A stretch of DNA of 64,000 nucleotides, taken from NCBI GenBank assembly GCA_002424635.1, contig DIKT01000029.1, positions 6,254 through 70,253 of the forward strand, in the 5' to 3' direction. The DNA is from Desulfobulbaceae bacterium UBA5611. Lineage in GTDB: Bacteria; Desulfobacterota; Desulfobulbia; Desulfobulbales; Desulfocapsaceae. The notes beneath the pieces were generated by a model, which worked only from the letters and a program-made list of their open reading frames with translations, made no database searches and was not told the DNA's origin. Below, one piece after another: positions 26,606-52,512 of this stretch. Each line of letters opens with the position of its first letter. Position 1 is the stretch's first letter. The translations under genes were made by a program, and so were the position numbers.

Positions 26606-26621
26606 TGCAAGCCTTGTGCCG
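26606..26621 (-). promoter_or_regulatory. Candidate sigma54 promoter upstream of csbD
   Basis: Minus strand reads CGGCACAAGGCTTGCA. GG and TTGC have the exact -24/-12 spacing. About 165 nt upstream of the csbD ATG. Confidence 0.5.
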
Positions 26622-26719: not shown

Positions 26720-26750
26720 GGTTATATATAACCAGTGGCCATATATGACC
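26720..26750. promoter_or_regulatory. Two adjacent 14-bp palindromes (candidate activator sites)
   Basis: GGTTATATATAACC (perfect, 26720-26733) and GGCCATATATGACC (26737-26750). They lie 100-130 bp upstream of the -24 element. Confidence 0.4.
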
Positions 26751-35400: not shown

Positions 35401-35682
35401 TTAGAATAGCCAGCGCAGGCCACCTCCCCAGCCGAACCGGGAATGCCATTGGCCGATCAGCGCCAAGTTTTTGGACAATACATAGTTCAACCCCGCCCGG
35501 CTTTCCCATTTTTCGCCGCTGTCATATTCGACTTTGGCAACAACAGCCAGTCGGGGAGTGGCTGCCTGCTGGAGATCAAGGCTGACTTGGACGTCACCTG
35601 CGGTATCCACCCACAGGCGCGATTCGATATTGAAGGGCAGCAGGTAGCGCAGGCCGGCAATAGCTCTTTTTTGTCCAGCTGA
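35401..35682 (-). pseudogene. CopB-like outer-membrane barrel C-terminus in the alternative frame (continuation of the oxidase ORF if A6 at 35667-35672 were A7)
   Basis: Frame-shifted translation AIAGLRYLLPFNIESRLWVDTAGDVQVSLDLQ...GQWHSRFGWGGGLRWLF ends in an aromatic residue like CopB (..GVRLWF). One added A joins it in frame after ..SDQLDKK. Confidence 0.65.
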
Positions 35683-37775
35683 TCACTGATCCCGTTCAGA
35701 TCGACTCCGGCCAGGATCCTGGTAAAACGGTTCAGATAATAATCATAAGTAGGCGTTAGCTCCCAATGCACCTCATCAACGCGTTGCCAACCGGCCTGCC
35801 AGTCAGCGGAGAAGATATGGCGCCTATTGGCATAAACCAGCGCGCCTTGAGCCATCTGTGATAAGACATCGACCTGACCAAACAGATAATAAGGGTCATG
35901 GTAGAGACCGGGGCGGACGGCGGCGGTGGCGGCATCGGGGGTGAAACCCTGATAATGCACCACCTGCTCCATGCCGCTTTCCATATGATAGAGCAGATGG
36001 CAGTGAAATAACCAGTCGCCGAACTCTTCTGCCGCAAGCTCAATGACCGTGGTCGTCATCGGCGGGACATTTACGGTATGCTTGAGCGGTGAAAAGTCGC
36101 CCTGGCTATTGATAACGCGGGAAAAATGGCCGTGCAGATGTATGGGATGATGCATCATGGTGCGGTTGATCATAATAAAGCGCACGACTTCATCCTGTTT
36201 GATCTCAATGTGATCGGCTGCAGATAAGGGTTTATTGTTCAGAAACCAGACGAGCCGCTCCATGTCACCGTCGAGCGTGAGCCGGATTTCCCGGACCGGC
36301 CGGGCGGCGGCAAAGGCCGTGGCCTGCAAGGCGCGCAGTTGCTCGTATGGCGGCCACGGCCGGTCGGGGCTCATGCCATCAATGGCCACTGAGGCTTGGG
36401 CACTCACATCCTCTGCTAGCAAGCCCAGCCATGTGCTGCCGGGGGCCATCACCGCTGTTTGCTGATCAGGTGCTGCCATGTCATGGCCGGCATGATCTGT
36501 CGGGGATGGAGGGGGTGCCGGTGCATCATGCGCCATTGTGTCGCTGTGCTGTCTAATCTTATGGTGATCCATCTCCTCCATGCCATTCATGCCGTGCATG
36601 CCCGGTTGGTCTAATTTGCCGGCCTTCACATCCTGCTCGGCCATGCCCATCGAGCCGGCTGGCGTTAAGGCCAGCACCCGTTGCAGAGAGAGACTGTCCA
36701 TATTGGAGTAGAGATCAGGTCGCGGGATGTCCGGCGCCGCGTGCCGTGCTCCGCTGCCAAGCCACAGCAAGCTGTGCCCTGAGCCATCCTGAGAAGTGGC
36801 GCGAAATTCATAGCTGCCGTCGGCCGGTATCGTAATGATCACGTCATACGTTTCAGCGACGGCAATCAGCAGCCGTGATGCGGCAAATGGTTGCACCGGC
36901 AGCCCGTCGGCCGCTATAATCTGCAGCGGGCCGCCGGCAAACTGCACATAAAAAGAAGTGCTGGCCGAACCAGCGATCACCCGTAAACGGATTTTTTCAC
37001 CGGGCTGCACGGCCAGAGACTGCTCGGCGGCCCCATTGATGAGAAAGCGCTCATAGTAGACATCGGCAATGTCCATAGGGGGCATCCGCTGAATTTCACG
37101 GGCGAAGTAATCGCCCAACATGCCCAGCCGCGTCGCTCCCAGGATACTCTGGCCACTGCCCTTGCGTAAGGAATACCATTCGTTACCGCGTTTGAGGGTG
37201 CGCAGGACTGAGTCGGCATCCTCATCGGTCCAGTCGGAGAGCATAACCACGTACTCACGGAGATGATCAACAGGATCCTCCTTCTTCGGCTTGATGACCA
37301 GCGCGCCAAAGAGGCCACGTTGCTCCTGTAACCCGGAATGGCTGTGATACCAATAGGTGCCTGCTTGTCGTAAGTCAAACTCGTAAGTAAAAGTCGTGCC
37401 GGGCGCAATGGGCGCAAAGGTCAGGAAAGGCACGCCGTCCATGTTATTGGGCAGTAAAATCCCATGCCAGTGTATCGAGGTGGCGACAGACAGGTGATTA
37501 TGGACGCGGATCACCGCATGGTCCCCTTCGGTGAAATAGAGGATCGGCCCCGGCAGTTGTCCGTTGATGGCGATGGCCTCGACCGGCTGGCCGGTGAAGT
37601 TCATCTTCTGGAGGGCAATAGTGAGGTCGTATGCCACCGTGGCTGCCGCCAGATTTGTGCCCGGCAGCAACAGCGCCAAGCTGCACCACAATATTGCCGC
37701 CAGTTTGCTCAGCATCATCCGCATCCGGCGCTTGACTGGTTGCGGTAACCGGGATTTTTCATTTATCGGCTCCAT
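35487..37775 (-). CDS. Multicopper oxidase (CopA/PcoA-like) with C-terminal CopB-like extension, as-read frame
   Basis: HWHG, YWYHSHSG, HPIHLHGH, HCHLLYHMESGM copper motifs and a Met/His-rich insert. After the last Cu motif the protein continues into beta-strand-like sequence. The final ~40 codons look like out-of-frame read-through. Confidence 0.85.
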   Translation of the reverse strand: MEPINEKSRLPQPVKRRMRMMLSKLAAILWCSLALLLPGTNLAAATVAYDLTIALQKMNFTGQPVEAIAINGQLPGPILYFTEGDHAVIRVHNHLSVATSIHWHGILLPNNMDGVPFLTFAPIAPGTTFTYEFDLRQAGTYWYHSHSGLQEQRGLFGALVIKPKKEDPVDHLREYVVMLSDWTDEDADSVLRTLKRGNEWYSLRKGSGQSILGATRLGMLGDYFAREIQRMPPMDIADVYYERFLINGAAEQSLAVQPGEKIRLRVIAGSASTSFYVQFAGGPLQIIAADGLPVQPFAASRLLIAVAETYDVIITIPADGSYEFRATSQDGSGHSLLWLGSGARHAAPDIPRPDLYSNMDSLSLQRVLALTPAGSMGMAEQDVKAGKLDQPGMHGMNGMEEMDHHKIRQHSDTMAHDAPAPPPSPTDHAGHDMAAPDQQTAVMAPGSTWLGLLAEDVSAQASVAIDGMSPDRPWPPYEQLRALQATAFAAARPVREIRLTLDGDMERLVWFLNNKPLSAADHIEIKQDEVVRFIMINRTMMHHPIHLHGHFSRVINSQGDFSPLKHTVNVPPMTTTVIELAAEEFGDWLFHCHLLYHMESGMEQVVHYQGFTPDAATAAVRPGLYHDPYYLFGQVDVLSQMAQGALVYANRRHIFSADWQAGWQRVDEVHWELTPTYDYYLNRFTRILAGVDLNGISDQLDKKELLPACATCCPSISNRACGWIPQVTSKSALISSRQPLPDWLLLPKSNMTAAKNGKAGRG

Positions 37776-37824
37776 TCATTGGCCTTGAAACTGCAAAAAT
37801 TACGGTCAACTTTTTCTTAAAAAG

Positions 37825-38676
37825 CTAGCTTGTAATAAAATCGCCGCCATTGATATGAATTATCTGGCCGACCACATAAGAGGCATCGTCACTGGCCAGA
37901 TAAACAAAGGCGGGTGCTACCTCGCTCGGCTGGCCGGCTCTGCCCATGGGAGTATCCTGGCCGAATTTCTGGACTTGCTCTTCATCAAAGGTCGCCGGTA
38001 TTAATGGTGTCCAGATAGGACCGGGGGCCACGCCATTGACCCTGATTTGTTTGGGCACCAGATTCTGGCTTAACGATCTGGTGAAGGACACAATAGCGCC
38101 TTTGGTCGAGGAATAATCAAGAAGACGACTGCTGCCGCGGTAGGCCGTAATGCTGGTGGTATTAATGATCGAGTCGCCTGCAGATAAATACTGTAGAGCT
38201 GCTTTGGTGATATAAAACATGGAAAAAATATTGGTCCTGAAAGTAGCTTCCATCTTCTCCAGATCAAGCTCCTCCAGATCTTTGGCTACATGCTGTTCGG
38301 CGGCATTATTAACAATAATATTTATCCGGCCGAATTCGGCCGCAGTTTTTTCAACGGCCGTGCGGCAAAAGGCTTTATCGCCAATATCGCCGGCAATGAT
38401 CAGACATTTGCGCCCTTCTTTTTGGACAAGTTCCAGAGTCTGTCGGGCATCTTCATCCTCTTGAAGATAGATGATGGAGATGTCTGCTCCTTCCCGGGCA
38501 AAATGCACGGCCACGGCCCGGCCAATCCCGGAATCACCGCCAGTGATGAGGGCCACTTTATTTTTCAATTTTTCACTGCCGCGATAAGTATCCTTGATAA
38601 ATTCCGGTTGAGGACGCATTTTATATTCATAGCCCGGCTGCGATTGCCGCTGTTTGGGAAATTCTTTTGGTTGCAT
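37825..38676 (-). CDS. SDR-family oxidoreductase (YdaD/GSP39-like)
   Basis: ALITGGDSGIGRA, NNAA, YSSTKGA motifs. Start MQPKEF behind an AGGAG RBS. Confidence 0.85.
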   Translation of the reverse strand: MQPKEFPKQRQSQPGYEYKMRPQPEFIKDTYRGSEKLKNKVALITGGDSGIGRAVAVHFAREGADISIIYLQEDEDARQTLELVQKEGRKCLIIAGDIGDKAFCRTAVEKTAAEFGRINIIVNNAAEQHVAKDLEELDLEKMEATFRTNIFSMFYITKAALQYLSAGDSIINTTSITAYRGSSRLLDYSSTKGAIVSFTRSLSQNLVPKQIRVNGVAPGPIWTPLIPATFDEEQVQKFGQDTPMGRAGQPSEVAPAFVYLASDDASYVVGQIIHINGGDFITS

Positions 38677-38771
38677 TCTTTCTCCTTTAATCAAGATTTT
38701 AGAAGAGCAGAACTTATTGAAATGGCCAGTCAAAGTGTGGCCCTGCTGCCATAAAAAACTGTCTTGAACTG

Positions 38772-39569
38772 CTAGCCGGTCATCCGGGCCTTTTTCTGTT
38801 CTTCAGCCTGTTCGATGCTGGCTTTGAGGCGGGCCACGATATCAATCATATTAGTCGGCTGGATCTTTACTTCCTCCGCCTCAAATTCGACACCCTCTGC
38901 TTTGGCGCGGATCATCGCCAGCATTTCTTCCCGGTAGCTGTCATGAAATTCTGTGGGCTCAAACTCGCCGCTCATGCTTTTAACGAGCAGATCGGCCATT
39001 TCTACCTCGCGTTGGCCCAGCTTCACGGCGGTTGTCGGCAGCCCGATCCCTTCTGGTTTGCGGATCTCATCCGGATAATGCATCATGTTCATGACCAGCA
39101 TCTGCTCAGTCGGGCGGATGAGAGCGAGAGTTTCCTTGTCGCGCATGACCATTTTTGCCACTCCGACTTTTTGGGCCCGCTTGAGCGCATCCACCAGCAA
39201 GGCATAGGGCATGGCCCCGCCTTCATTGGGGCCAAGATAATAGGCTGTATTGAGATAGATAGGATCGATGGCTGCAGCATCGACAAATTCCTGAATCTCG
39301 ATTGCCCGGGTGGCACTGCGGGCGAATTTAGCGAATTCATCATCGGACAGGGTCACATAGCGGCCTTTTTCCAACTCGTATCCGCGAATGATCTCTTCGG
39401 CCTCGAGATTCTTGCCGCAGACCTTGCAGATTTTTTGGTAACCGATGCGGCCGCCATCATCTTTATGGAGTTGATTAAAATGCAGCTGTTTTTCCTCAAT
39501 GGCGGGGAAAAGCGCTACCGGTATATTAACCAGCCCGAAGCTGATGATCCCTTTCCACATCGCCCGCAT
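38772..39569 (-). CDS. ku: Ku protein (NHEJ)
   Basis: MRAMWKGIISFGLVNIPVAL canonical Ku start, 265 aa, directly downstream of ligD. Confidence 0.9.
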   Translation of the reverse strand: MRAMWKGIISFGLVNIPVALFPAIEEKQLHFNQLHKDDGGRIGYQKICKVCGKNLEAEEIIRGYELEKGRYVTLSDDEFAKFARSATRAIEIQEFVDAAAIDPIYLNTAYYLGPNEGGAMPYALLVDALKRAQKVGVAKMVMRDKETLALIRPTEQMLVMNMMHYPDEIRKPEGIGLPTTAVKLGQREVEMADLLVKSMSGEFEPTEFHDSYREEMLAMIRAKAEGVEFEAEEVKIQPTNMIDIVARLKASIEQAEEQKKARMTG

Positions 39570-39571
39570 AG

Positions 39572-42175
39572 TTAAGACTCCATCCTCAGCTCAGCTTTTG
39601 ATGAATTGCCATGCAATATTGTCACTGCCTGTTTCAGCCTCTGTTTAAGCTCCAGCACCGGCAGAAACAGATCTCCGACCTGATCGATTCTGGCGTCCAT
39701 GGTCTTGATGGTAAACTGGGTCGGCTGCAGACATTGTTCCACCTCAGGCCAGGTCAAGGGCGCCGAGACGGTTGCTCCTTCTCTGGCCCTGACTGTATAG
39801 ACGCCCGCCAGTGTTTTACTCAATCCGTTCTGCAGATAATCAAGATAGACGGTTTCAGCCGGGCGCTTTTTGGTCATCCGCTCAATGGTTGTTTCCTCGG
39901 GGCTGCGGTCATGGGTGAGGCGGGCCATCACCTCGGCAAAAGCGGTGACCTGCTCATGGCCGTAAATGGCCTCTACCGGAATAAAGATATGGAGGCCGCG
40001 GCTGCCGGAGGTCTTGGGGCAGGATTGTAAACCGGCATCGGCCAGCAGATCCCGGATCAGCAGCGCCACTTTACAGATCTTCGAATATTTGGTGTCCGGG
40101 CCGGGATCAAGATCGAGAACCACATAATCCGGATGTTGGGTAGTCAGATATCTGGAGTGCCAGGGGCTGATCTGCACGGCGCCGAGGTTGGCCAGATAGA
40201 CTAAGGTCGCTCTGTTGTTGCACAGGGCGTACACAATCTGCTCGCCTTTATCGTTGGCAGGTGAAGTCCATGTCTTGATAAATGGTGGGGCCCCCTCGAG
40301 ATTGTGTTGATAGAAGGCCTGGGCCTTAATACCGTTAGGGTATCTCTTGAGCACCAGTGGCCGGTCCTGGAGGTGGGGCAGAATAGTCGCGGCAATCTGG
40401 TAATAATAACGGACGAAGTCGCCTTTGGTAAAACCACTGTCGGGCCAGTAGATTTTCTCCAGATTGGTGAGGGCGAGTTCCTGGCCATCAACTATTACCC
40501 GGTGGTTGCCGTGCAGTGTTTCTGCCGCAAAAAAATCCGCGGCCTGCAGGGCAGTCTTCGCGCCAACGGCTGAGTGTTTTTTAAGCTTCGGGTGGCCGGC
40601 AGGCGTCTTTTCTACCTCAACAATTTCCTGGGCTTCCAGCGTACAGGTCCGTGGATCTTTATCATCTCTTAGCCGCAGGAAAATGGGGTGACGGAGTTTG
40701 CCGTCGCCGGTTTTCTCCGTATAACGGACTTCACAGACCAGCTCAGGCCGTAGCCACTGCGCCGGCTGGTCTGTCTTGACCGCTGTCGCAAAAGGGGAAT
40801 TGTCTGTTCGCCGTGAGCTCATCAGCTCAAAGATCTGTTTCAGGCTATTTTCGCTGAAGCCGCCACCGACGTTGCCGATGTAGCGCAGTTGGTCCTTATC
40901 ATAAAGGCCGAGGATCAAAGCGCCGAAGGATGAACGGCTGCCGCGGCCTTTGGTGTAACCGCCGATGACGGCGTCCATGGTCTGCGCGGTCTTGATCTTC
41001 AACCATTTTTTACTGCGCCGCTGCTCATATTTACTGTGGCTGTCCTTGGCCACGACACCTTCCATCTGCTGCGCGCGGATCTGCTCAAAAAGCAGGGTAC
41101 CCTTCTCCTTGACATGATCGCTGAGCCGGATGCTGCCTTGATTATCTATGAGTTGAGATAGAAGATGTTTACGGTCGAGTAAGGGTTCATTGCTGAGATC
41201 ATGGCCATTACAGTAGATCAGATCGAAGACATAATAGACCAGAACCGGTTTGTCGGTACTGCTCGGTTTGGCACGAAAGCCGGCGGCGTTCTGCATCAAT
41301 TGAAAATCCGGCTTCCCCTCGGCATTGAGGGCCACGATTTCACCATCAATGACAGCCGTTCGGGCCGATATCTCAAAGCGGGCCGCGACCAGCTCAGGGA
41401 ACTTGTCGCCGAGATCGATATGATTCCTGGAGACAAAGCGAATCCGGTCGTCCTCCACATAACAGATGCTGCGGTAGCCGTCCCATTTAATCTCGAAAAG
41501 CCAATCGGCATCATCGAATGGTTGGTTGACCAGAGTGGCCAGCATCGGCTCAACTTGGGCAGGAAAGGGGCCGGGTTTACCTATTTTAACCTCGACGATG
41601 TGCTTCTCGGTACCGTTCACCACGACGGTTGCCGCTTCGGCCAGGGGGCGGCTTTTGCTGTCAGAGGCCAGGACGGGTTCAAGCGTCCACCCTGGAATAG
41701 CGCACTCATCTGCCTTTTTCATGAGCAGCCAGGAGTCTTGCGCCTGCCTGGTGCGCACCAGATGAAACTCGCCGCATAGCCGCCGGCCCTTAAGCCTGAA
41801 GCTGAGCTTGCCATTGTGGAGGCCCTGCTCAGGATTGGGCGGATCAATGATCTCATAGCTGCCGATGTCCCAGACAGCCACCTCACCTGCGCCATAGTTG
41901 CCTTGAGGGATGGTGCCTTCGAAGGTGAGGTATTCCAGGGGATGATCTTCAGTCTGGACGGCCAGACGCTTTTCGTGGGGATCAAGGGAGGGACCTTTGG
42001 GGATGGCCCAGCTTTTCAGGACGCCATTGATCTCCAGCCGCAGATCAAAATGCAAATGGCGGGCATGGTGCTCCTGGATGACGAAACTTTGCCCGGAACC
42101 ATAATCACTGACTCCGCCAGCTGGCTCCGGCGTTTTGTCGAGCTGTCGTTTGCTCCTATACTTATCAAGCGACAT
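39572..42175 (-). CDS. ligD: DNA ligase D (phosphoesterase + ATP-ligase + polymerase/primase domains)
   Basis: PE domain FVIQEHHARHLHFDLRLE, ligase KxDG (FEIKWDGYR), Pol domain VVLDLDP and SGSRGLHIFIP. The ATG at 42175 has a GGGAGA RBS. The ORF is open to 42211. Confidence 0.9.
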   Translation of the reverse strand: MSLDKYRSKRQLDKTPEPAGGVSDYGSGQSFVIQEHHARHLHFDLRLEINGVLKSWAIPKGPSLDPHEKRLAVQTEDHPLEYLTFEGTIPQGNYGAGEVAVWDIGSYEIIDPPNPEQGLHNGKLSFRLKGRRLCGEFHLVRTRQAQDSWLLMKKADECAIPGWTLEPVLASDSKSRPLAEAATVVVNGTEKHIVEVKIGKPGPFPAQVEPMLATLVNQPFDDADWLFEIKWDGYRSICYVEDDRIRFVSRNHIDLGDKFPELVAARFEISARTAVIDGEIVALNAEGKPDFQLMQNAAGFRAKPSSTDKPVLVYYVFDLIYCNGHDLSNEPLLDRKHLLSQLIDNQGSIRLSDHVKEKGTLLFEQIRAQQMEGVVAKDSHSKYEQRRSKKWLKIKTAQTMDAVIGGYTKGRGSRSSFGALILGLYDKDQLRYIGNVGGGFSENSLKQIFELMSSRRTDNSPFATAVKTDQPAQWLRPELVCEVRYTEKTGDGKLRHPIFLRLRDDKDPRTCTLEAQEIVEVEKTPAGHPKLKKHSAVGAKTALQAADFFAAETLHGNHRVIVDGQELALTNLEKIYWPDSGFTKGDFVRYYYQIAATILPHLQDRPLVLKRYPNGIKAQAFYQHNLEGAPPFIKTWTSPANDKGEQIVYALCNNRATLVYLANLGAVQISPWHSRYLTTQHPDYVVLDLDPGPDTKYSKICKVALLIRDLLADAGLQSCPKTSGSRGLHIFIPVEAIYGHEQVTAFAEVMARLTHDRSPEETTIERMTKKRPAETVYLDYLQNGLSKTLAGVYTVRAREGATVSAPLTWPEVEQCLQPTQFTIKTMDARIDQVGDLFLPVLELKQRLKQAVTILHGNSSKAELRMES

Positions 42176-42249
42176 CGGCCAGTCTCCCATGTTATAATTT
42201 CGCTCAAACAAAGTATTATCCAGATCATTATTTGACCTTTATTGCCGGC

Positions 42250-42320: not shown

Positions 42321-42779
42321 TTATCTCAGATTTTTTCGGATTTTTTGTTTTTCCTGCTCAAACTTGGTCATGATAGTGTGGAGCTCGTCCCGGTCGAAAG
42401 CTTTTTTAGCACTTTTGAATATGTTGCTCTCTTCGTCTTTGATATGGTGATCAACCAGCTCTTTAAACACCCTCATCTTGGCGGCCCATTTATCATCGCC
42501 CTTCGGCATTTTGTCCAGTTCCTTTAAAACCAACTCACTCACATGATGTTCCTCCATGCCTTCCAGCGCATCTTCACGAGCCTCCTCCTTTTCCATTAAA
42601 GGTGTATAAAAAACGCCTTCCTCGGCTTTCATATGAGGTACCAGTTCTTCTTTCAGCTGTTGAAATAATTGTTCCCGCTTCTTCATTGTGGCGCCATTTT
42701 CACTGGTTTCATCAAGCTGTTCCAGGATGTCCTTTACTTCCATATGATCCTGCTTGAGCAATTTAAAGAATTCATTCAT
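42321..42779 (-). CDS. Hemerythrin-like (HHE cation-binding) domain protein
   Basis: H/E-rich four-helix pattern (DHMEVK, VPHMKAEE, EEHHVSE, DHHIKDEE). AGGAG RBS. Confidence 0.75.
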   Translation of the reverse strand: MNEFFKLLKQDHMEVKDILEQLDETSENGATMKKREQLFQQLKEELVPHMKAEEGVFYTPLMEKEEAREDALEGMEEHHVSELVLKELDKMPKGDDKWAAKMRVFKELVDHHIKDEESNIFKSAKKAFDRDELHTIMTKFEQEKQKIRKNLR

Positions 42780-42984: not shown

Positions 42985-43320
42985 TTAACGGAAAAACTCT
43001 GATGCAATATCGGAAAGGGCATTGACTACTGGTCGGGCGATACGGTTGGTCCGCGGGCGATGGTTAGTAGTATTGGCCAGGAGAAGACCTATGCCAACTC
43101 CTATGCCTAAGGCAACAAGAATAGTCGTGCCGGGATTTTCCTGGTTATAAACTTTGGCCTTTTCGTAGGTTTCATTCAACTTTCTGGTTGTTTTATTATA
43201 CATTTCACTTGCCGTTTTCTCAGCCTCTTCATAGGCCTCGGCGCCTTCTTCAATGATATTGGCAGTTGGGCTACCGGTCGCGCCCTGCTGTCTGGGGGCC
43301 TCGAATCTATTTGTCTCCAT
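42985..43320 (-). CDS. DUF883/ElaB/YqjD-like tail-anchored stress protein
   Basis: Start METNRF behind an AGGAGG RBS. Charged helical N-terminus, then ENPGTTILVALGIGVGIGLLLA TM. Confidence 0.6.
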   Translation of the reverse strand: METNRFEAPRQQGATGSPTANIIEEGAEAYEEAEKTASEMYNKTTRKLNETYEKAKVYNQENPGTTILVALGIGVGIGLLLANTTNHRPRTNRIARPVVNALSDIASEFFR

Positions 43321-43390
43321 GATATATCCTCCTGAATAAAGATGAGTTTTGATACTTCTGGAAATCTTAAAGGATCTTAAGGCTAAATTA

Positions 43391-43795
43391 TTATATGTTA
43401 TGGCCGCGCCCACTACCGGCAGTTTTGGCAGGTAAGGTTGCATATTTGATCCAATCGGTGGCCGCCTTTGTCACTATGGCCATCAGTGTTACTCTGAACA
43501 AGCCGGGCTTAGCGGCAGCGGCATTCAGGCCATTGAGTGAGTCGTGAACTTCCTCGGTTAAGGAGTCCAGGAAGCGTTCCAAAGGCGGGCGGCGTGTCTT
43601 TATTCTCTTGGCGGCAAGATAGCCAAGACCACCAGCAACGCCAAGCGCCCAATAGGGCGAATCCCTTACATAGACCCGCCAATCAAGTTTCTCTTTGAGG
43701 CGCTCTCCGATTTGTTCGGCTGTCTGCGAAAGTTGCTGTTCCTCTCGAGCTATATCCTGCATGATATCTTCGGTAGTACGTTCTTTGTCAGCCAT
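43391..43795 (-). CDS. Membrane protein with DUF3618-like charged N-terminal helix
   Basis: MADKERTTEDIMQDIAREEQQLSQTAEQIGERLKEKLD, then YWALGVAGGLGYLAA TM. AGGAGG RBS. Confidence 0.5.
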   Translation of the reverse strand: MADKERTTEDIMQDIAREEQQLSQTAEQIGERLKEKLDWRVYVRDSPYWALGVAGGLGYLAAKRIKTRRPPLERFLDSLTEEVHDSLNGLNAAAAKPGLFRVTLMAIVTKAATDWIKYATLPAKTAGSGRGHNI

Positions 43796-43832
43796 TCAGG
43801 ATCCTCCTTTCCTTAATATCTTTGATTAAAAA

Positions 43833-44174
43833 TCATTTTTGTAATTGCTTGGAGCCAATGAGAGCTAGAATGATCCCGACGACAGCAAAAACTACGCCAA
43901 TGATCAAGGCAGCAAGGGCGGGAGAGGTATATGAGGTAAGTCCGATGATCAAGGCCGCGCCAAAAGACAACAAGGCAGCAAAACCGATAGCTGCTCCTGT
44001 CGCGATCAATATGGCTGCCTGTTGAATAGTGCTCAACTTGTCGCGAAACCGTTGTATGACGAGCTCAATCTCATCGTGAATCACGGCGGCTGAGCCCTTA
44101 GCAAGCTGCCCCAGCAATTCAGGCAAGGATCCCGGTTCGGTAACGCCGGTATTATTTTCCACTTTATTATTCAT
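43833..44174 (-). CDS. YqjE/holin-X-like (DUF1469) two-TM protein
   Basis: Start MNNKVE behind a GGAGG RBS. Amphipathic N-terminus plus two long Gly/Ala-rich TM helices, ending in SKQLQK. Confidence 0.6.
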   Translation of the reverse strand: MNNKVENNTGVTEPGSLPELLGQLAKGSAAVIHDEIELVIQRFRDKLSTIQQAAILIATGAAIGFAALLSFGAALIIGLTSYTSPALAALIIGVVFAVVGIILALIGSKQLQK

Positions 44175-44188
44175 CGGGGGAGGCCTCC

Positions 44189-44458
44189 TTACCGGTGCCG
44201 GCACATCGCTCCGATAACCAGGCCGACGGCGCCTGCTATCAAAAGGCTGCGTCCCGGACTCTCTCTGACGTATTCCCGAACTCTGGCATCGGCCTCTTGA
44301 TAATCAAATTGGCGGATATATTCGGCTGATTGGTCCAGCCATTCGGATGCTTTGATGCCATATTGCGCCATCTTCTCGTTTGGAACGTCCGGGTCGATCG
44401 CTTTTTCGCACAAAACCTCAGCCGCTTGATGGAGCTTGTCGGCAATGATATTTTTCAT
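44189..44458 (-). CDS. DUF883/ElaB/YqjD-like tail-anchored protein
   Basis: C-terminal RESPGRSLLIAGAVGLVIGAMCRHR. The start is uncertain, because the ORF is open to 44602. Confidence 0.55.
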   Translation of the reverse strand: MKNIIADKLHQAAEVLCEKAIDPDVPNEKMAQYGIKASEWLDQSAEYIRQFDYQEADARVREYVRESPGRSLLIAGAVGLVIGAMCRHR

Positions 44459-44648
44459 GTTCCCCAGGCCGCAGCAGCATGATCTATCCGACCCTGGGAT
44501 CCCTGCCGTGGTCTCTCCGGTTGGGTCTATATCACAATTAGTTATTCCCATAGTTCGCCTCATAAAGGAGTCATGGTTGAGAACAGCCTGAACATTTTGC
44601 AATGATGAAAATATGATGACTATCTGTTCATGACCCGTTTGCTATAAC

Positions 44649-45317
44649 TTATAGCTTATCACGTAGAGGAGCTCTGGTACTGGAAGTAGTAGTGGCGGTG
44701 GTCCTTGGCTTGGACTCGCCTGCTGTTGGATAATCAGGATTATAATCACGGCGTGGAGGGACATCAGAGCCGGGTTTATCGCTGATATCATAGTCGGCAC
44801 TGGCTTCTGCTTTATAGGCCACATCTTCCGCCCCGGTCCGTTCTAAAATGTCTTTAGCCTTATTCTTCCAGTCCCGATTGTCGGCATGGACAGAGAGTAA
44901 AATTCCGCCTTCTTTGATACGCCCTTCATAGCGGTTGGCCTCATACTCGGGAATACCCATACCGATCAGTGCTCCGGCTATACCTCCGACTAAGCCACCG
45001 GCGCCGACCCCGGCTAAAGCAGCCACGATGGGTCCAGCTGCAACAAAAGGACCAATACCCGGGATGGTTATTAAGCCAATGCCGGCCAGCCAGCCTAAAG
45101 CTCCACCAATGACGGCCCCGCTGCTGGCCCCTGTCGCTGTTCCTTCCGGGGCCTTGGTTTCTTTCTCGATAGCGAAATCTTTGGTGCCGCCGCTTTCAGG
45201 AAACAAGACCGAGATGTCGGCACTGCGGAAGCCGGCTTCTTTTAATTCATCGACTGCTTTTTCAACGATCAGGCGGCTCGGATAGATGCCGTAAACTGCG
45301 ATGTTTTTAGATGCCAT
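44649..45317 (-). CDS. YflT (GSP17M)-like general stress protein with central glycine-zipper membrane region
   Basis: NIAVYGIYPSRLIVEKAVDELKEAGFRSADISVLF, then a ~70-aa G/A-rich hydrophobic segment, then IPEYEANRYEGRIKEGGILLSVH. GGAG RBS before ATG 45317. Confidence 0.6.
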   Translation of the reverse strand: MASKNIAVYGIYPSRLIVEKAVDELKEAGFRSADISVLFPESGGTKDFAIEKETKAPEGTATGASSGAVIGGALGWLAGIGLITIPGIGPFVAAGPIVAALAGVGAGGLVGGIAGALIGMGIPEYEANRYEGRIKEGGILLSVHADNRDWKNKAKDILERTGAEDVAYKAEASADYDISDKPGSDVPPRRDYNPDYPTAGESKPRTTATTTSSTRAPLRDKL

Positions 45318-45341
45318 CACCTTGTCTCCTTTCTTCAGAAT

Positions 45342-45731
45342 TTAGGGTTTGATAGTAATCTCGCTATTAATCCTATTGTTTCCTGCTGCCTGGGAGGCCT
45401 TCTGTTCAACCATTGTTTTTTCCTGCTCAGTTCTGACGTGCCCTTTTAATGTTACTACGCCACGCTCGGTAGTGATCGCCACATTCCTCTGAATCTCTTT
45501 GGGTAGTGTCTGGTCATCCTCGATGGCCTGCCAGATTTTTCCTGTGATCTCACGTTCTTCTTTGGTGCCGACTGTTTGCTTTTCAGCAAGCGGACCAGCT
45601 ACACCTACGGTTTTGTCCTGAGGGGGAGTTATTGTTTCCGGTTTATGGACCGCCAAACATGCTCCCGGGAAGTTGCCAAGCAAAAAGCCCGCTACCAACA
45701 AAGTCATAAAAAGTGTTTTATTTTTAGACAT
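45342..45731 (-). CDS. Secreted single-BON-domain protein (OsmY-like)
   Basis: Signal peptide. BON core VAITTERGVVTLKGHVRTEQEKTMVEQKA. AGGAG RBS. Confidence 0.8.
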   Translation of the reverse strand: MSKNKTLFMTLLVAGFLLGNFPGACLAVHKPETITPPQDKTVGVAGPLAEKQTVGTKEEREITGKIWQAIEDDQTLPKEIQRNVAITTERGVVTLKGHVRTEQEKTMVEQKASQAAGNNRINSEITIKP

Positions 45732-45864: not shown

Positions 45865-45880
45865 AGCAATTTTAGTGCCA
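45865..45880 (-). promoter_or_regulatory. Sigma54 promoter of the BON/tail-anchored protein operon
   Basis: Minus strand reads TGGCACTAAAATTGCT, an exact TGGCAC-N5-TTGC. About 135 nt upstream of the ATG at 45731. Confidence 0.75.
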
Positions 45881-45929: not shown

Positions 45930-45985
45930 GCTGCTTGTGCGCTAAAACTTTTTCCCGAAATACGGAAACGAAAAAACGGAAATTT
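45930..45985. promoter_or_regulatory. Conserved upstream element A (candidate enhancer/UAS)
   Basis: GCTGCT..CGCTA..CTTTTTCCCGAAATACGGAAACGAAAAAACGGAAA lies 50-105 bp upstream of the -24 element. The core recurs at 50528-50580. Confidence 0.6.
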
Positions 45986-46032: not shown

Positions 46033-46395
46033 TTATTTATTGATAAATAAGATGGTGGTCCACCAGGCTATAAAGAGAAATTCAGCAAGCGCATCAAGCA
46101 GATAAATTGCTGCAATGATGCGCTTTTTAAAATAAATGATGTCGACTCCGGCCAGAACTACCGCACTACCGATGGCGAGCACTGCAGTTGATAACATTGG
46201 TTCCTGCCGCATTCCTGCAATTATCAAGGTAGTGCCGATGACAAAAAGAATAGCTCCCACAGTTTTCACAAGCCACAGGTCATGTTTCGGGCCGGTGACC
46301 TGCTGGAAGCTCTCGATGCTCACAATAGGCCAGATGCCGGTCAGGGCATAAAAGATGCCTTGGGTCAGAGCAGTAAGAAAAAAATTTTCTATCAA
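46033..46395 (-). CDS. Four-TM membrane protein, unknown function
   Basis: 120 aa, four hydrophobic helices, TTG start. Lies 19 nt downstream of the Cys-rich protein gene. Confidence 0.5.
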   Translation of the reverse strand: MIENFFLTALTQGIFYALTGIWPIVSIESFQQVTGPKHDLWLVKTVGAILFVIGTTLIIAGMRQEPMLSTAVLAIGSAVVLAGVDIIYFKKRIIAAIYLLDALAEFLFIAWWTTILFINK

Positions 46396-46414
46396 AGCCT
46401 ATACCCTATTCAAC

Positions 46415-46741
46415 TTAGGCCATTTTACGGCATTCATCTGCACATCTATAGCAGGCTTGAGCGCATTGCTGACAATGCTCCATCGTATGTTTGTTGCATT
46501 CATCACCGCATTCCTGGCAAACCTGAGCGCATAAGTCGCAGATTTTGGCAATATATTTGGAGCCACGGGCCATGAAACGGGCTGCCAGGTTGCAAATATC
46601 GGCGCAATCTTGATCGAGTTCGATGCAACGAACCATTATTTTAATATCATCTTCCAGCAAGCAGGCAGACAGGCAATGTTCGCAGGCTGTGACGCACTCA
46701 TTGCAGGCCTTGATACAGGTTTCATATTGTGTATGGGACAT
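46415..46741 (-). CDS. Cys-rich four-helix-bundle metal (copper)-binding protein (DUF326 family)
   Basis: 19 Cys in 108 aa, arranged as repeated CxxxCxxC/CxxCxxxC heptads (CIKACNECVTACEHCLSAC ... CQQCAQACYRCADEC). GGGAGG RBS. Confidence 0.8.
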   Translation of the reverse strand: MSHTQYETCIKACNECVTACEHCLSACLLEDDIKIMVRCIELDQDCADICNLAARFMARGSKYIAKICDLCAQVCQECGDECNKHTMEHCQQCAQACYRCADECRKMA

Positions 46742-46801
46742 AATTTCCTCCCGTTAATGATTAAAAGTCTTGACTGTCAAATGGCGTCCTTGGGTTACAA
46801 G

Positions 46802-46850
46802 CAAAAAAAGCGGGCGGAACGCTCTTGATAATAAATAAGAGCGTCCGCCA
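46802..46850 (-). terminator. Rho-independent terminator after the KGG-repeat gene
   Basis: GGCGGACGCTCTT / AAGAGCG(T)TCCGCC hairpin followed by T7 on the minus strand. Confidence 0.75.
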
Positions 46851-46918
46851 CCTTTAATAAGTACAGGCCGGCATTTTGAGCCTGACCTCGTGCCGGGTTT
46901 TATCTATGATGGCTGAGA

Positions 46919-47323
46919 TTATCTGTTTTTATGGCTTTGGCGGCCGGCCTTGGCATGCTGTTCCGGTGTGCCGCCGCGGGCTGATTTGCCTGAACTTTTA
47001 CTGCTGCTGCTGGAACTGCGGCTGCTCGAACCACGGCTGCTCTCGCCCCCTTTGGCGCCAATGTCTGCCATGTGAGAACGATCCCGGCTGGTCGACTCGC
47101 CGCCTTTACGGCCAATATCAGCCATATGCTCACGGTCCTGACTGACGGTTTCTCCACCTTTCTGACCGGCGCGGCGCGCCTCTTCAGATGTGAATTCATG
47201 GGCGGTGCCTTTTTCATGGGCTGCCTTGCCGCCCTGGCTTGCTATCTCTCGTTGTCGCTTTTCATCCATGGATGCAAAGCCGCGCTTACTCTGGCTTCCT
47301 ACATCTTTTCTATGACTAGGCAT
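46919..47323 (-). CDS. KGG-repeat general stress protein (GsiB/YciG-like)
   Basis: Repeated QGGKAAHEKG / QKGGETVSQDREHMADIGRKGGE / IGAKGGES. Ser-rich tail. Start MPSHRK behind an AGGAG RBS. Confidence 0.8.
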   Translation of the reverse strand: MPSHRKDVGSQSKRGFASMDEKRQREIASQGGKAAHEKGTAHEFTSEEARRAGQKGGETVSQDREHMADIGRKGGESTSRDRSHMADIGAKGGESSRGSSSRSSSSSSKSSGKSARGGTPEQHAKAGRQSHKNR

Positions 47324-49764: not shown

Positions 49765-50205
49765 TTAGGCCTTGACCGCCTCTAAGGCCGATTCGACCCG
49801 AGGTAGCATTTTGGTATTGTCAAAGTCGCCCCGTAAGACTTTCAAGGCATATCTCTCACGATCTATCTCCTGCTGGGTGCGAACCCCCAGCCTGCGGAAG
49901 ATGGGGACAGGCGGGCACCAGCCCTGTACTGCATGTTCGAATAAAAATGGTAATACTATGCCCGGTACCAGCAGCCATTTCCGATTATAGGTCAGACCGA
50001 GCACCAGTCCGGTGAAGGCCAGAGCGGAGGCATTAGTTTCAAGCATGCGCTCCATGTCCCATTCCCGGTCGAGCTCATTGAGACGGCAATTGATATCAGC
50101 AGTGCTTTTCTGGGCATATGCGCGGACCCGAGCATCAATGTTTTGATCAATCTGGCTGTTGATTTTTGCTGAAGTATGAGCCCGGACCCTGTCTGTTTTA
50201 GCCAT
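49765..50205 (-). CDS. DUF2892 (YgaP-like) membrane protein
   Basis: Start MAKTDR behind a GGGAGGA RBS. Two TM segments and the QGWCPP motif. Confidence 0.65.
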   Translation of the reverse strand: MAKTDRVRAHTSAKINSQIDQNIDARVRAYAQKSTADINCRLNELDREWDMERMLETNASALAFTGLVLGLTYNRKWLLVPGIVLPFLFEHAVQGWCPPVPIFRRLGVRTQQEIDRERYALKVLRGDFDNTKMLPRVESALEAVKA

Positions 50206-50450
50206 AATTTTTCCTCCCTGGGAGTTAAATTCAAGTCTTATAGATCTTAGGATCAGGATCCCTTTTTTGATTCTTTGGAATAAGAGAAAGATCGCGACGA
50301 GGGTTGGGTAGCCACGACTTTTCTCCTCATTCAAGTCATTGAGCCACTTATTTTTAAGATGAAAAGAAGATATACTGTTGAGGTAGTGAGTAAATTGGTT
50401 TTTTGCTCCAATGAGTCTGCACGCTTAAAATATAGCTTATTTTACTGAAC

Positions 50451-50466
50451 AGCAATATTTATGCCA
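50451..50466 (-). promoter_or_regulatory. Sigma54 promoter of the DUF2892-katE unit
   Basis: Minus strand reads TGGCATAAATATTGCT, with exact -24/-12 spacing. About 245 nt upstream of the ATG at 50205. Confidence 0.7.
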
Positions 50467-50527
50467 GTATTGCTTGGTCTGTTTTTAAGTAATTATTATT
50501 AGGACTTCATGTCAGTTTGACGATTTC

Positions 50528-50580
50528 GCTGCTATTTTTCGCTACGCTTTCCCGAAAAACGGACCGAAAAAACGGACTTA
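50528..50580. promoter_or_regulatory. Conserved upstream element B (candidate enhancer/UAS)
   Basis: GCTGCT..CGCTA..CTTTCCCGAAAAACGGACCGAAAAAACGGAC lies 62-114 bp upstream of the -24 element. Cores CCCGAAAnACGGA and CGAAAAAACGGA are identical to element A. Confidence 0.6.
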
Positions 50581-50692
50581 TCCTTATCAGGTAGGAAGCA
50601 TAACCGATTGTATGAGATCATCACCAAAAGTCTTGCCTGTTATTTAATTAACCCGGTAATCCGCTTAGACATGGACTCTAAAGATAGATGCA

Positions 50693-50721
50693 TTGACAAT
50701 CAGTCCGGAACGATGCAATAT
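50693..50721 (+). promoter_or_regulatory. Candidate sigma70 promoter for the GGDEF gene
   Basis: TTGACA, 17 nt, CAATAT. About 80 nt upstream of the ATG at 50800. Confidence 0.4.
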
Positions 50722-50799
50722 TTCTTGTAAAGATTTAAATATTCCAATGGCGTTAATGATCTGAAGAAATAAGTGAGATTATCTTCATTCAGAGGTCAT

Positions 50800-52512
50800 A
50801 TGCACATCAAACTATCTACATCCCGAAAAGAGGCCCTCCGGATAGCTCTACCTCCCCTGGTAGCTGTTGTTCTGTTTGTCTCCGTTGTTTTCGGCTTGCT
50901 TCTGCCGGGCTATCATAATGCTGTGCTGGAACGAAAAAAGGAGATGATCCGCGAATTAACCACTACCGCCTGGAATATTCTGCAGTATTATCATACCAGG
51001 ACCGGCCATGGTGAGCTGACCCGGTTGGAGGCTCAAACCATGGCGGCGGAGGAGATCGGCAGACTTCGTTATGGGCCTGATAATAAAGATTATTTTTGGA
51101 TAAATGACATGCGGCCGGTGCTGATCATGCATCCCTATCGGCCGGATTTGGAAGGTCAGGATGTGTCTGATTTTGCCGATCCCAGCGGCCAGCGGCTGTT
51201 TGTGTCCTTTGTTGATAAGGTCCAGCAGGAGGGCTCCGGTTTTGTCCCTTACCTCTGGCAGTGGCAGGATGATGCCAGTCAAATAGTGGCCAAATTATCC
51301 TATGTCAAAGGATTCCAACCCTGGGGCTGGATCGTCGGTACTGGTATCTATCTGAATGATGTAGAACAGGAAACGGCCTTGGTCACGACCAGACTGGCTA
51401 TGATCTCCCTGGCCATTCTGCTTTGTATTGCCGCCCTTTCAGCCCATAGCATACGACAGGGTATCCGGGCGGTGCGCCAGCGTCGGCAGGCCTTGGAACT
51501 GCTGAGTCAGCATCGCGATCAGCTGGCTGAGGATGTCAACGAACGGACCCGGGAATTGCAGGAAAGTAACGAGCTCCTGCGTTCAGAAGTAGAGGAACAT
51601 GCCAGTGCCGAAAAGCATATCACCGGCCAGCATGCCTTCCTGGAAAGCGTCTTAGAGTCGCTGCCGTTTCCTTTTTATGTAGTGAATGCCGATAATTATT
51701 TGATTGAGATGGCCAATTCTGCGGCCAAGAAAGAAGGTTGGGTTGGAGGTGCTTGTCATCTTCTGACCCATGGCAGCCCAGTGCCATGCGGTGGTGAGGG
51801 CCATTCTTGCCCCCTGGATGAGGTGAAAAGAACAGGCTTGCCGGTAACCTTAGAGCATCAGCATTATGATCATGAGCACGGAGCCTGTCGTTTTTATGAG
51901 GTACACGGCTTCCCTATCTTTGATAAAGAAGGCCGGGTGGTCAAAATGATCGAAACCAGTCAGGATATCACCCAGCGCAAGGAACTGGAGGCTCAGCTTA
52001 TAGAAATCTCCAATACCGATCAGTTGACCGGTCTCTATAATCGACGCGGCTTTTTTATTATGGGCGAAAAACAGATGCAGGTGGCTGAGCGTCTGGGCAG
52101 CCGGCTGACTCTGCTTTTTGCTGATGTTGATAATCTCAAGCCGATCAATGATACCCTTGGCCATGAAGGGGGTGATGCTATTTTAAAGGCAGCGGCCACC
52201 GTCCTGATAGATACTTTTCGCCAGGCTGATATTGTCGGGCGCTTAGGTGGTGATGAATTTGCTGTCCTGTTGATAGAAGGCAGCGAGGAGGCTAATGACT
52301 TTACAATGCAGCAGCGTCTGCAGGAAAATATCGACCATCGTAACCGGGCCTTCCCTGCTTTTCCTCTGGAGTTGAGCACCGGTACTGCTCTGTTCGATCC
52401 CGCCAACCCCTGCTCCCTTGAGGATCTCATCGCCGAGGCGGACCGACATATGTATGAGGACAAGCAGGCCAAGAAAGCCGTAATTGTTCTTAAGCCTGCA
52501 GAGACAGCATAG
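50800..52512 (+). CDS. Diguanylate cyclase: periplasmic sCache sensor + TM + coiled coil + Cys-motif PAS + GGDEF
   Basis: YFWINDMRPVLIMHPYRPDLEG Cache signature, RLGGDEFAVLL active site. The ATG at 50800 has an AGAGG RBS. The ORF is open to GTG 50773. Confidence 0.85.
   Translation: MHIKLSTSRKEALRIALPPLVAVVLFVSVVFGLLLPGYHNAVLERKKEMIRELTTTAWNILQYYHTRTGHGELTRLEAQTMAAEEIGRLRYGPDNKDYFWINDMRPVLIMHPYRPDLEGQDVSDFADPSGQRLFVSFVDKVQQEGSGFVPYLWQWQDDASQIVAKLSYVKGFQPWGWIVGTGIYLNDVEQETALVTTRLAMISLAILLCIAALSAHSIRQGIRAVRQRRQALELLSQHRDQLAEDVNERTRELQESNELLRSEVEEHASAEKHITGQHAFLESVLESLPFPFYVVNADNYLIEMANSAAKKEGWVGGACHLLTHGSPVPCGGEGHSCPLDEVKRTGLPVTLEHQHYDHEHGACRFYEVHGFPIFDKEGRVVKMIETSQDITQRKELEAQLIEISNTDQLTGLYNRRGFFIMGEKQMQVAERLGSRLTLLFADVDNLKPINDTLGHEGGDAILKAAATVLIDTFRQADIVGRLGGDEFAVLLIEGSEEANDFTMQQRLQENIDHRNRAFPAFPLELSTGTALFDPANPCSLEDLIAEADRHMYEDKQAKKAVIVLKPAETA

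Follow-up and report, generated by a model that had tools for sequence, protein, structure and literature searches.

A putative enhancer-dependent sigma-54 promoter ahead of a large-subunit catalase gene in the general-stress island of a Desulfobulbia-like bacterium

In textbooks, catalase and general-stress genes are placed under the control of OxyR, PerR, RpoS and SigB. In Myxococcus xanthus, PexR has been described as the first H2O2-sensing activator of a peroxiredoxin and katB from sigma-54 promoters; its sites are three CACCG-N6-CGGTG repeats, and its targets are katB and ahpC (PMC12754779). PexR (2025) is the only enhancer-binding protein shown to drive a catalase. In Burkholderia pseudomallei, KatE needs the sigma-54 paralog RpoN2 (PMC4745423), and in Desulfovibrio vulgaris, DVU3305 is a three-component 'general stress' sigma-54 activator (PMC3333781, PMC4641369). 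Among the ten papers listed by a full-text literature search, none was a relevant report on sigma-54 control of osmY, csbD or BON genes. Here, we describe a predicted sigma-54 promoter, P_B, and its upstream element, UAS1, in a 64,000-nucleotide (nt) stretch of contig DIKT01000029.1 (the window). P_B precedes genes for a 146-amino-acid (aa) protein and an HPII/KatE-type catalase, and a second promoter in the window, P_A, carries the same element. All genes of interest are on the minus strand (Table 1).

We consider P_B, with a probability of about 0.7, to be a genuine enhancer-dependent sigma-54 promoter within a general-stress island that would be wired to sigma-54. The mechanism proposed is standard; what is unusual is the set of target genes.

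Promoter P_B and its upstream element

The preliminary description had placed a sequence with sigma-54 spacing on the minus strand at 50451-50466. This was borne out: in TGGCATAAATATTGCT, the GG and GC doublets are exactly 10 nt apart (GG-N10-GC), within TGGCAC-N5-TTGCW. P_B lies inside the intergenic region 50206-50772, on the coding strand and 245 nt ahead of the ATG at 50205. The motif TGGCAYN5TTGCW occurred twice in the 64 kb, as P_B and P_A, compared with 0.24 matches expected; of 100 shuffles, only one had two or more. P_B and P_A are intergenic and share the strand of their downstream genes.

Conservation was checked in contigs of close relatives, which were recovered by protein searches and keep the gene order of the island (L004, L036, L039-L044). 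The protein identity was 88% for the 146-aa protein (one relative) and 77-91% for the BON protein of operon A (several relatives). P_B is invariant over 17 nt in L004, and the promoter was also found in L003 and L039. P_A is kept as TGGCA(C/T)TAAAATTGCT in L036 and L040-L044, the sole change being a C/T exchange that the consensus allows.

The minus strand at 50577-50528 reads GTCCGTTTTTTCGGTCCGTTTTTCGGGAAAGCGTAGCGAAAAATAGCAGC and lies 62-114 nt upstream of the -24 T of P_B. An element at 50528-50580, 62-114 bp from the -24 position, had been proposed before, and its sequences and coordinates were correct. This 53-nt element had also been described as colinear, apart from short spacer indels, with an element A upstream of P_A; this held for a core of ~30 nt, in which 27/30 positions are identical between the loci and one 1-nt indel is found (GTCCGTTTTTTCGGTCCGTTTTTCGGGAAA at 50577-50548 in locus B, TTCCGTTTTTTCGTTTCCGTATTTCGGGAAA at 45981-45951 in locus A). 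The consensus is TCCG-T6-CG(G)..TCCG-W5-CGGGAAA. The local alignment of the two upstream regions had a score of 26, while shuffled sequences scored 11.5 +/- 1.85 (standard deviation) and none of 2000 reached 26. Upstream of P_A and P_B, the core was the only block in common.

The outer words of the 53 nt did not stand. TAGCG..AGCAGC is changed to CAGTT..AACAGA in L004, the closest relative. Because these words are mutated there, the constrained element has ~30 nt rather than 53, and the outer segment is probably non-functional. A reading of it as a third degenerate unit was rejected, as it is not conserved in L004.

The core itself was the longest invariant run at both loci. UAS1-B is an invariant run of 32 nt in a 687-column alignment of the window and L004, in which 32% of the columns vary. 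UAS1-A is an invariant run of 35 nt among five orthologous intergenic sequences, in which 26% of the columns vary. Five relatives with 77-91% protein identity were used for the conservation of the element, and the invariance covers the CCG..CGG dyads, not the T-tracts alone. We regard this as supportive footprinting, not as deep footprinting.

The distance of the element from the promoter is also fixed. Measured from start to start, each of the six A copies has exactly 100 nt, and the four B copies have 110-111 nt. Between the loci, the difference is 10-11 nt, or about one helical turn. Relative to the predicted transcription start, UAS1-B is located at about -108 to -136, within the usual enhancer range of sigma-54 systems (about 80-150 nt from the promoter). 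The spacers between UAS1 and the promoters have an AT content of 64-66%, compared with 48% for the window.

Consensus match, invariance, fixed spacing and an activator gene on the same contig (see the following section) argue for a sigma-54 promoter with a dedicated enhancer-like site, and the sharing of that site argues for the mini-regulon of two operons; both had been put forward in the preliminary description. From the sequence we infer the use of sigma-54, the binding of an activator, the co-transcription of the catalase and the inducing signal. P_B would stay closed until a bacterial enhancer-binding protein (an AAA+ ATPase with a Fis-type helix-turn-helix) acts on it. This activator would bind the ~30-nt element (50576-50548) at its two TCCG-W5/6-CGG units, centred near -120, oligomerise and contact the sigma-54 holoenzyme by looping of the AT-rich spacer. 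ATP used by the activator would then open the promoter. The transcript would start near 50440 and comprise a 235-nt leader, the gene of the 146-aa membrane protein and, most probably, the HPII-type catalase gene. The same activator would co-regulate P_A at the head of the BON/YflT/DUF883/YqjE-like operon. As inducing signals, O2 or peroxide, stationary phase, and osmotic or desiccation stress would each be in keeping with these genes.

Table 1. Position of the features described in the text (window coordinates, except for P_D)
Feature	Position	Strand	Sequence	Remark
Predicted sigma-54 promoter P_B	50451-50466	minus	TGGCATAAATATTGCT	-24 GG, -12 GC; predicted start near 50440
Putative enhancer core UAS1-B	50545-50576	minus	TCCGTTTTTTCGGTCCGTTTTTCGGGAAAGCG	two adjacent units, TCCG-T6-CGG and TCCG-T5-CGGG
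Outer part of the 53-nt element	50528-50544	minus	TAGCG..AGCAGC	short words matching element A, variable spacing
Predicted 5' untranslated region, ~235 nt	50206-50440	minus		from promoter position and ATG at 50205
146-aa helical or membrane protein with GWCPP motif	49765-50205	minus		first gene downstream of P_B
Large-subunit HPII/KatE-type catalase, 696 aa	47615-49705	minus		begins 59 nt after the 146-aa gene
KGG-repeat protein, DUF326/Csp-like Cys-rich protein, 120-aa membrane protein	46033-47323	minus		after katE
Predicted sigma-54 promoter P_A	45865-45880	minus	TGGCACTAAAATTGCT	consensus match
Putative enhancer core UAS1-A	45950-45984	minus	AATTTCCGTTTTTTCGTTTCCGTATTTCGGGAAAA	invariant in orthologues
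Operon A: BON/OsmY-like, YflT-like, DUF883 (ElaB/YqjD-like), YqjE-like holin-X family, DUF883, 111-152-aa protein	42985-45731	minus		
Hemerythrin	42321-42779	minus		after operon A
Sigma-54-like promoter P_C	26606-26621	minus	CGGCACAAGGCTTGCA	intergenic, from relaxed scan
UAS2-C	26720-26750	minus	GGTCATATATGGCCACTGGTTATATATAACC	ends 98 nt before P_C
Sigma-54-like promoter P_D	L046 6471-6456	minus	CGGCACAAACTTTGCT	outside the window, 5' side

Gene context and wider occurrence

The best start of the first open reading frame (ORF) downstream of P_B is the ATG at 50205 with its GGAGG ribosome-binding site. A longer reading of 189 aa was rejected; it is not conserved because L004 has a 70-nt insertion in it. 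The leader contains the blocks AAATAAGTGGCTCAATGACTTGA and AAAGTCGTGGCTACCCAA (50353-50331 and 50321-50304, minus strand), which are invariant in comparison with L004 and both include GTGGCT. Neither an RNA structure nor an ORF accounts for them. An RNA element in the leaders was rejected: there was no Rfam match, and the fold z-scores of -0.44 (P_B leader) and +0.52 were not significant.

The first gene had been labelled DUF2892 in the preliminary description. This label is unsupported because the 146-aa protein had no Pfam match at E <= 0.1 (including DUF2892, PF11127) and no NCBIfam match. A PDB profile search was empty as well, and Foldseek gave no match below E = 1 (AlphaFold model with a moderate pLDDT of 68.5). 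The GWCPP that follows a helical hairpin is the sole feature reminiscent of DUF2892. The family has 4763 homologs, which are ~70% identical across Acidobacteriota, Gammaproteobacteria and Desulfobulbia, and its invariant motifs are W-D-x-E-R and Q-G-W-C-P-P. Distant homologs (L005 and L006, the latter from a metagenome-assembled genome of Desulfurivibrionaceae) were rejected as further cases: they have another gene context, no catalase and no sigma-54 motif.

The second gene encodes the large HPII-type catalase that had been predicted, with the domains Catalase (PF00199, 1.9e-176), Catalase-rel (PF06628) and Catalase_C (PF18011). Its score against the NCBIfam HPII model was 902 bits, which is below the equivalog cutoff of 1102. 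No terminator-like site was found in the 59-nt gap between the two genes, and the pair is syntenic in L004 with a gap of 53 nt. Most probably, the catalase gene is co-transcribed with the 146-aa gene from P_B. Whether the KGG, DUF326 and 120-aa genes are part of this transcript is uncertain because a gap of 290 nt follows katE; a weak hairpin is found there at 47554-47532.

On the other side of P_B, the region 5290-5460 of L004 corresponds to 50620-50810 of the window. L004 does not have the divergent Cache-PAS-GGDEF gene (50800-52512), and the promoter-proximal DNA is kept. Because of this, the diguanylate cyclase gene beside the enhancer appears to have been recently lost in L004 or recently gained in the lineage of the window.

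Operon A was delimited by Pfam matches, gene calls in L001 and synteny in L040 and L041. The island continues at 35487-42211 with LigD, Ku, SDR, a YHS-domain protein and a multicopper oxidase.

A second promoter class was found with the relaxed motif GGCAYN5TTGCW. This part of the analysis included contig extensions, among them L046, which adds 9.2 kb on the 5' side (L046 x = window x + 9217). The total DNA inspected was 84 kb, and the promoter tally covers 73 kb. P_C lies ~165 nt ahead of a CsbD-like gene (26442-26242), which is followed by a PRC-barrel gene (26133-25555), and P_D lies ~140 nt ahead of an operon with OsmY-like BON, lmo0937-family and DUF1207 genes (operon D). Both share a second upstream element, GGTYATAT..CCACYGG..ATATAACC. 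The alignment of UAS2-C with the element at L046 6601-6571 (GGTTATAT..ATATAACC) needs one 1-nt gap, and each element is separated from its promoter by a spacer of 98 nt. Upstream of P_C, the tandem palindromes GGTCATATATGGCC-ACT-GGTTATATATAACC are found in place of the TCCG element.

The relaxed motif had three matches in the window, compared with 0.96 expected (6 of 100 shuffles reach three), and one match in L046, compared with 0.34 expected. These counts are only mildly above chance, and the argument rests on the placement of the motifs and their paired upstream elements. The 73 kb contain four sigma-54-type promoters, all of them intergenic, correctly oriented and followed at 120-235 nt by stress genes. 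An upstream element is paired with each promoter at a fixed distance, and these elements fall into two enhancer classes. The units of P_A and P_B would hence be part of a larger island with at least four sigma-54-type promoters before general-stress genes and two classes of upstream sites, which broadens the earlier idea of a mini-regulon.

Convergent to operon D, we found genes for a 1459-aa multi-PAS kinase and a 508-aa REC-AAA+-HTH_8 activator. The features of the activator, the kinase and operon D span L046 200-6601, 5.9-9.0 kb past the 5' end of the window. The activator has Walker A (GETGTGKE) and GAFTGS motifs and is encoded on the same contig, 9 kb outside the window. Inside the window, neither a GAFTGA nor a Walker-A signature was present in any frame, and the 3' contig extension contained no sigma-54 activator. 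Either enhancer class could be served by the REC-type activator; judged by its position, it would fit class 2 better because it adjoins operon D.

The contig is present in the metagenomes ENA ERZ27315067 and JGI 3300000558. The best named relatives of its RpoD are Desulfocapsaceae and Desulfocapsa (65-72% identity), and dsrAB-dsrD lie ~4 kb past the 3' end of the window, after dnaG-rpoD-dprA (L048 15606-18399). Because of these relatives and the dsrAB-dsrD genes, the source organism is identified, on gene content, as an uncultured Desulfobulbia-like dsrAB carrier, a sulfate reducer or a sulfur disproportionator. The lineage is Thermodesulfobacteriota-like, which we counted in favour of sigma-54 control; very many sigma-54 activators have been reported for this phylum (PMC12316311, PMC4641369).

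Searches for UAS1 elsewhere gave orthologous sites only. A scan of 185,579 species genomes, which do not include the source species, with TCCGW6CGN{1,2}TCCGW5CGGG resulted in 28 matches, none of which had a downstream sigma-54 promoter. The majority (25 of 28; Rhizobium, Mesorhizobium, Agrobacterium, Chelativorans and related Alphaproteobacteria) were rejected as an unrelated palindromic repeat, TCCGAAAAATCGATTCCGATTTTCGGG, and the other three look like chance. The rhizobial repeat GCGCATCGTGCTTTCCGAAAAATCGATTCCGATTTTCGGGCCGATGCG is found in many genomes (L007-L034 except L013, L019 and L025); it is palindromic-repeat-like and unrelated. A scan of JGI metagenomes with CCGTTTTTTCGN{1,3}CCGTNTTTCGG gave three unrelated sequences and otherwise only the orthologous sites, A and B, from one close relative (L036, L039). 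Several copies of AATGCTCCGTTTT, tens of nt apart and iteron-like, occur in L035 (3184-3400) and L038 (4529-4750, minus strand), with one chance match to the pattern. Because neither these scans nor the distant homologs of the 146-aa protein gave further sites, the UAS1 module is, as far as sequence comparison reaches, lineage-specific. For the same reason, a wider UAS1 regulon is not demonstrated, and a regulon beyond operons A and B is unproven.

Alternative explanations

Several points weigh against an enhancer-dependent sigma-54 promoter at P_B. The leader is long at 235 nt, and the leaders hold further invariant blocks of 17-23 nt. The relatives that have the element are all close (84-85% intergenic identity), which limits the depth of the footprinting. 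The element occurs at no further non-orthologous site in the 185,579 species genomes and the JGI metagenomes, and the distant homologs of the 146-aa protein are without any sigma-54 promoter. No IHF consensus was found in the spacers with up to one mismatch allowed. No rpoN gene was seen in the 84 kb examined, and the sole activator found nearby adjoins the class-2 operon. Moreover, a weak sigma-70-like match (9/12) is located at 49845-49816, inside the 146-aa gene, and is a possible extra promoter of katE.

One alternative accepts P_B as a real sigma-54 promoter and takes the TCCG-T-rich element as the binding site of some other factor (for example a repressor, nucleoid-bending protein or sigma-70-type regulator). 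The enhancer would then be elsewhere, or the activator would act from solution. The two units are 13-14 bp apart, which is tighter than in classical NtrC/NorR arrays, and the oriented T-tracts could bend DNA instead of being recognised. As there is no IHF site, some bending element would be needed, and no cognate activator was assigned among those found. However, the invariance extends beyond the T-tracts to the CCG..CGG dyads, and a position at about -100 to -136 with phase-preserving spacing is typical of enhancers. No second shared block exists upstream of P_A and P_B, and the class-2 promoters have the same layout with a different dyad motif. We therefore consider a non-activator site unlikely.

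In another alternative, the -24/-12-like motifs are unused. The stress genes would be read by sigma-70, an RpoS-like factor or an extracytoplasmic function (ECF) sigma factor from unrecognised promoters, and the shared blocks would be sites of conventional regulators. In model bacteria, genes for HPII catalase, OsmY, CsbD and ElaB-type proteins depend on RpoS or SigB, the leaders of 120-235 nt leave space for other promoters, and the relaxed motif is only mildly enriched. However, a scan of the region with a sigma-70-like consensus, in which RpoS and ECF promoters were not specifically modelled, gave matches at chance level (7 compared with 7.0 in shuffles), and none before the 146-aa gene was strong. 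The -24/-12 blocks are conserved with change limited to the consensus-compatible C/T, and an intergenic, oriented position with an upstream element at a fixed distance is found for all four motifs in the 73 kb. Unused motifs are thus improbable in our view.

That the similarity of A and B is an undiverged relic of a duplicated regulatory cassette, with an upstream element that is not under selection, would agree with the distance of 4.6 kb between the loci in one island and with outer words (TAGCG, AGCAGC) that look like decaying similarity, but is very improbable, as the loci are essentially unrelated between core and promoter and past the promoter while the core is nearly identical, the core is the most conserved stretch within each locus across relatives, and the spacing difference is one helical turn and not arbitrary.

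Enhancer-dependent control of P_B by sigma-54 is hence the preferred reading, and it can be extended. In the extended form, sigma-54 would govern the entire general stress response through at least two dedicated enhancer-binding proteins and would thereby replace a factor of the RpoS/SigB type. The response would comprise HPII catalase, OsmY-like BON, CsbD, ElaB/YqjD-YqjE, KGG and YflT-type proteins, and perhaps the adjacent Ku/LigD. The two classes of upstream sites, with two promoters each, would mark two activators, and the pair of multi-PAS kinase and REC-type activator beside the island would be one stress sensor. We offer this extension tentatively and lean somewhat against it. The absence of rpoS in sulfate reducers is an assumption here; we know of no literature source for it.

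Comparison with known systems

The preliminary description had called a sigma-54-controlled catalase unusual. This applies to the target set, while for the catalase itself there are partial precedents in PexR-katB (PMC12754779) and RpoN2-katE (PMC4745423). The mechanism is conventional; what is added is a regulon and not a new principle. If true, it would be a second sigma-54 catalase module, unrelated to PexR, in which an HPII-type enzyme shares its regulation with genes of the OsmY, ElaB and CsbD types in a lineage of strict anaerobes. All-or-none, ATP-dependent control by sigma-54 would then be a means of oxidative and general stress defence that recurs among activator-rich bacteria, and a defined DNA motif would be at hand for fishing out the responsible sensor.

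In gene content, the island is like the regulons of RpoS (Escherichia coli) and SigB (Bacillus/Listeria), with katE, osmY-like BON, csbD/yjbJ, elaB/yqjD (DUF883), yqjE, KGG-repeat (yciG/gsiB-like), yflT and lmo0937 genes. The difference is in the promoters, which are of the enhancer-dependent -24/-12 type and not of the -35/-10 type of the sigma-70 family.

In promoter architecture, the module is like those of the NtrC family (glnAp2-NtrC, norV-NorR): exact -24 GG and -12 GC, adjacent dyad sites ~100-140 nt upstream, spacing by helix face and an AT-rich spacer for looping. Unlike in these modules, the two TCCG-W5/6-CGG units are just 13-14 bp apart, and they match no activator site found in the literature consulted.

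DVU3305 is similar in being a sigma-54 activator of the response-regulator type in a sulfate reducer, and the operons under its control are switched on by several stresses and in stationary phase. Its targets differ: they include UspA-type proteins, membrane proteins, kdp and a transporter, with no catalase, BON, CsbD or DUF883. RpoN2-KatE of B. pseudomallei also ties a KatE-type catalase to sigma-54. However, that work concerns a genetic dependence, which could be indirect, in an unrelated lineage, and no promoter or enhancer was mapped.

The module is also like PexR-katB, in which a catalase likewise lies behind a sigma-54 promoter with tandem interrupted dyads upstream. Of the PexR site itself, UAS1 has only the CCG-N6-CGG core. 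UAS1 differs from the PexR sites in having two units (GTCCG-T6-CGGTC and GTCCG-T5-CGGGA) with 4-bp half-sites and N5/N6 T-tracts, while PexR has 5-bp half-sites and three repeats. The catalase is of the large-subunit HPII type and not a KatB with AnkB, neither ahpC nor a GAF-type pexR was found in the 84 kb, the nearby activator is of the REC type, and the co-regulated genes encode general-stress proteins. Judged by its sequence, the module thus resembles PexR-katB in its working and is not a member of the PexR regulon.

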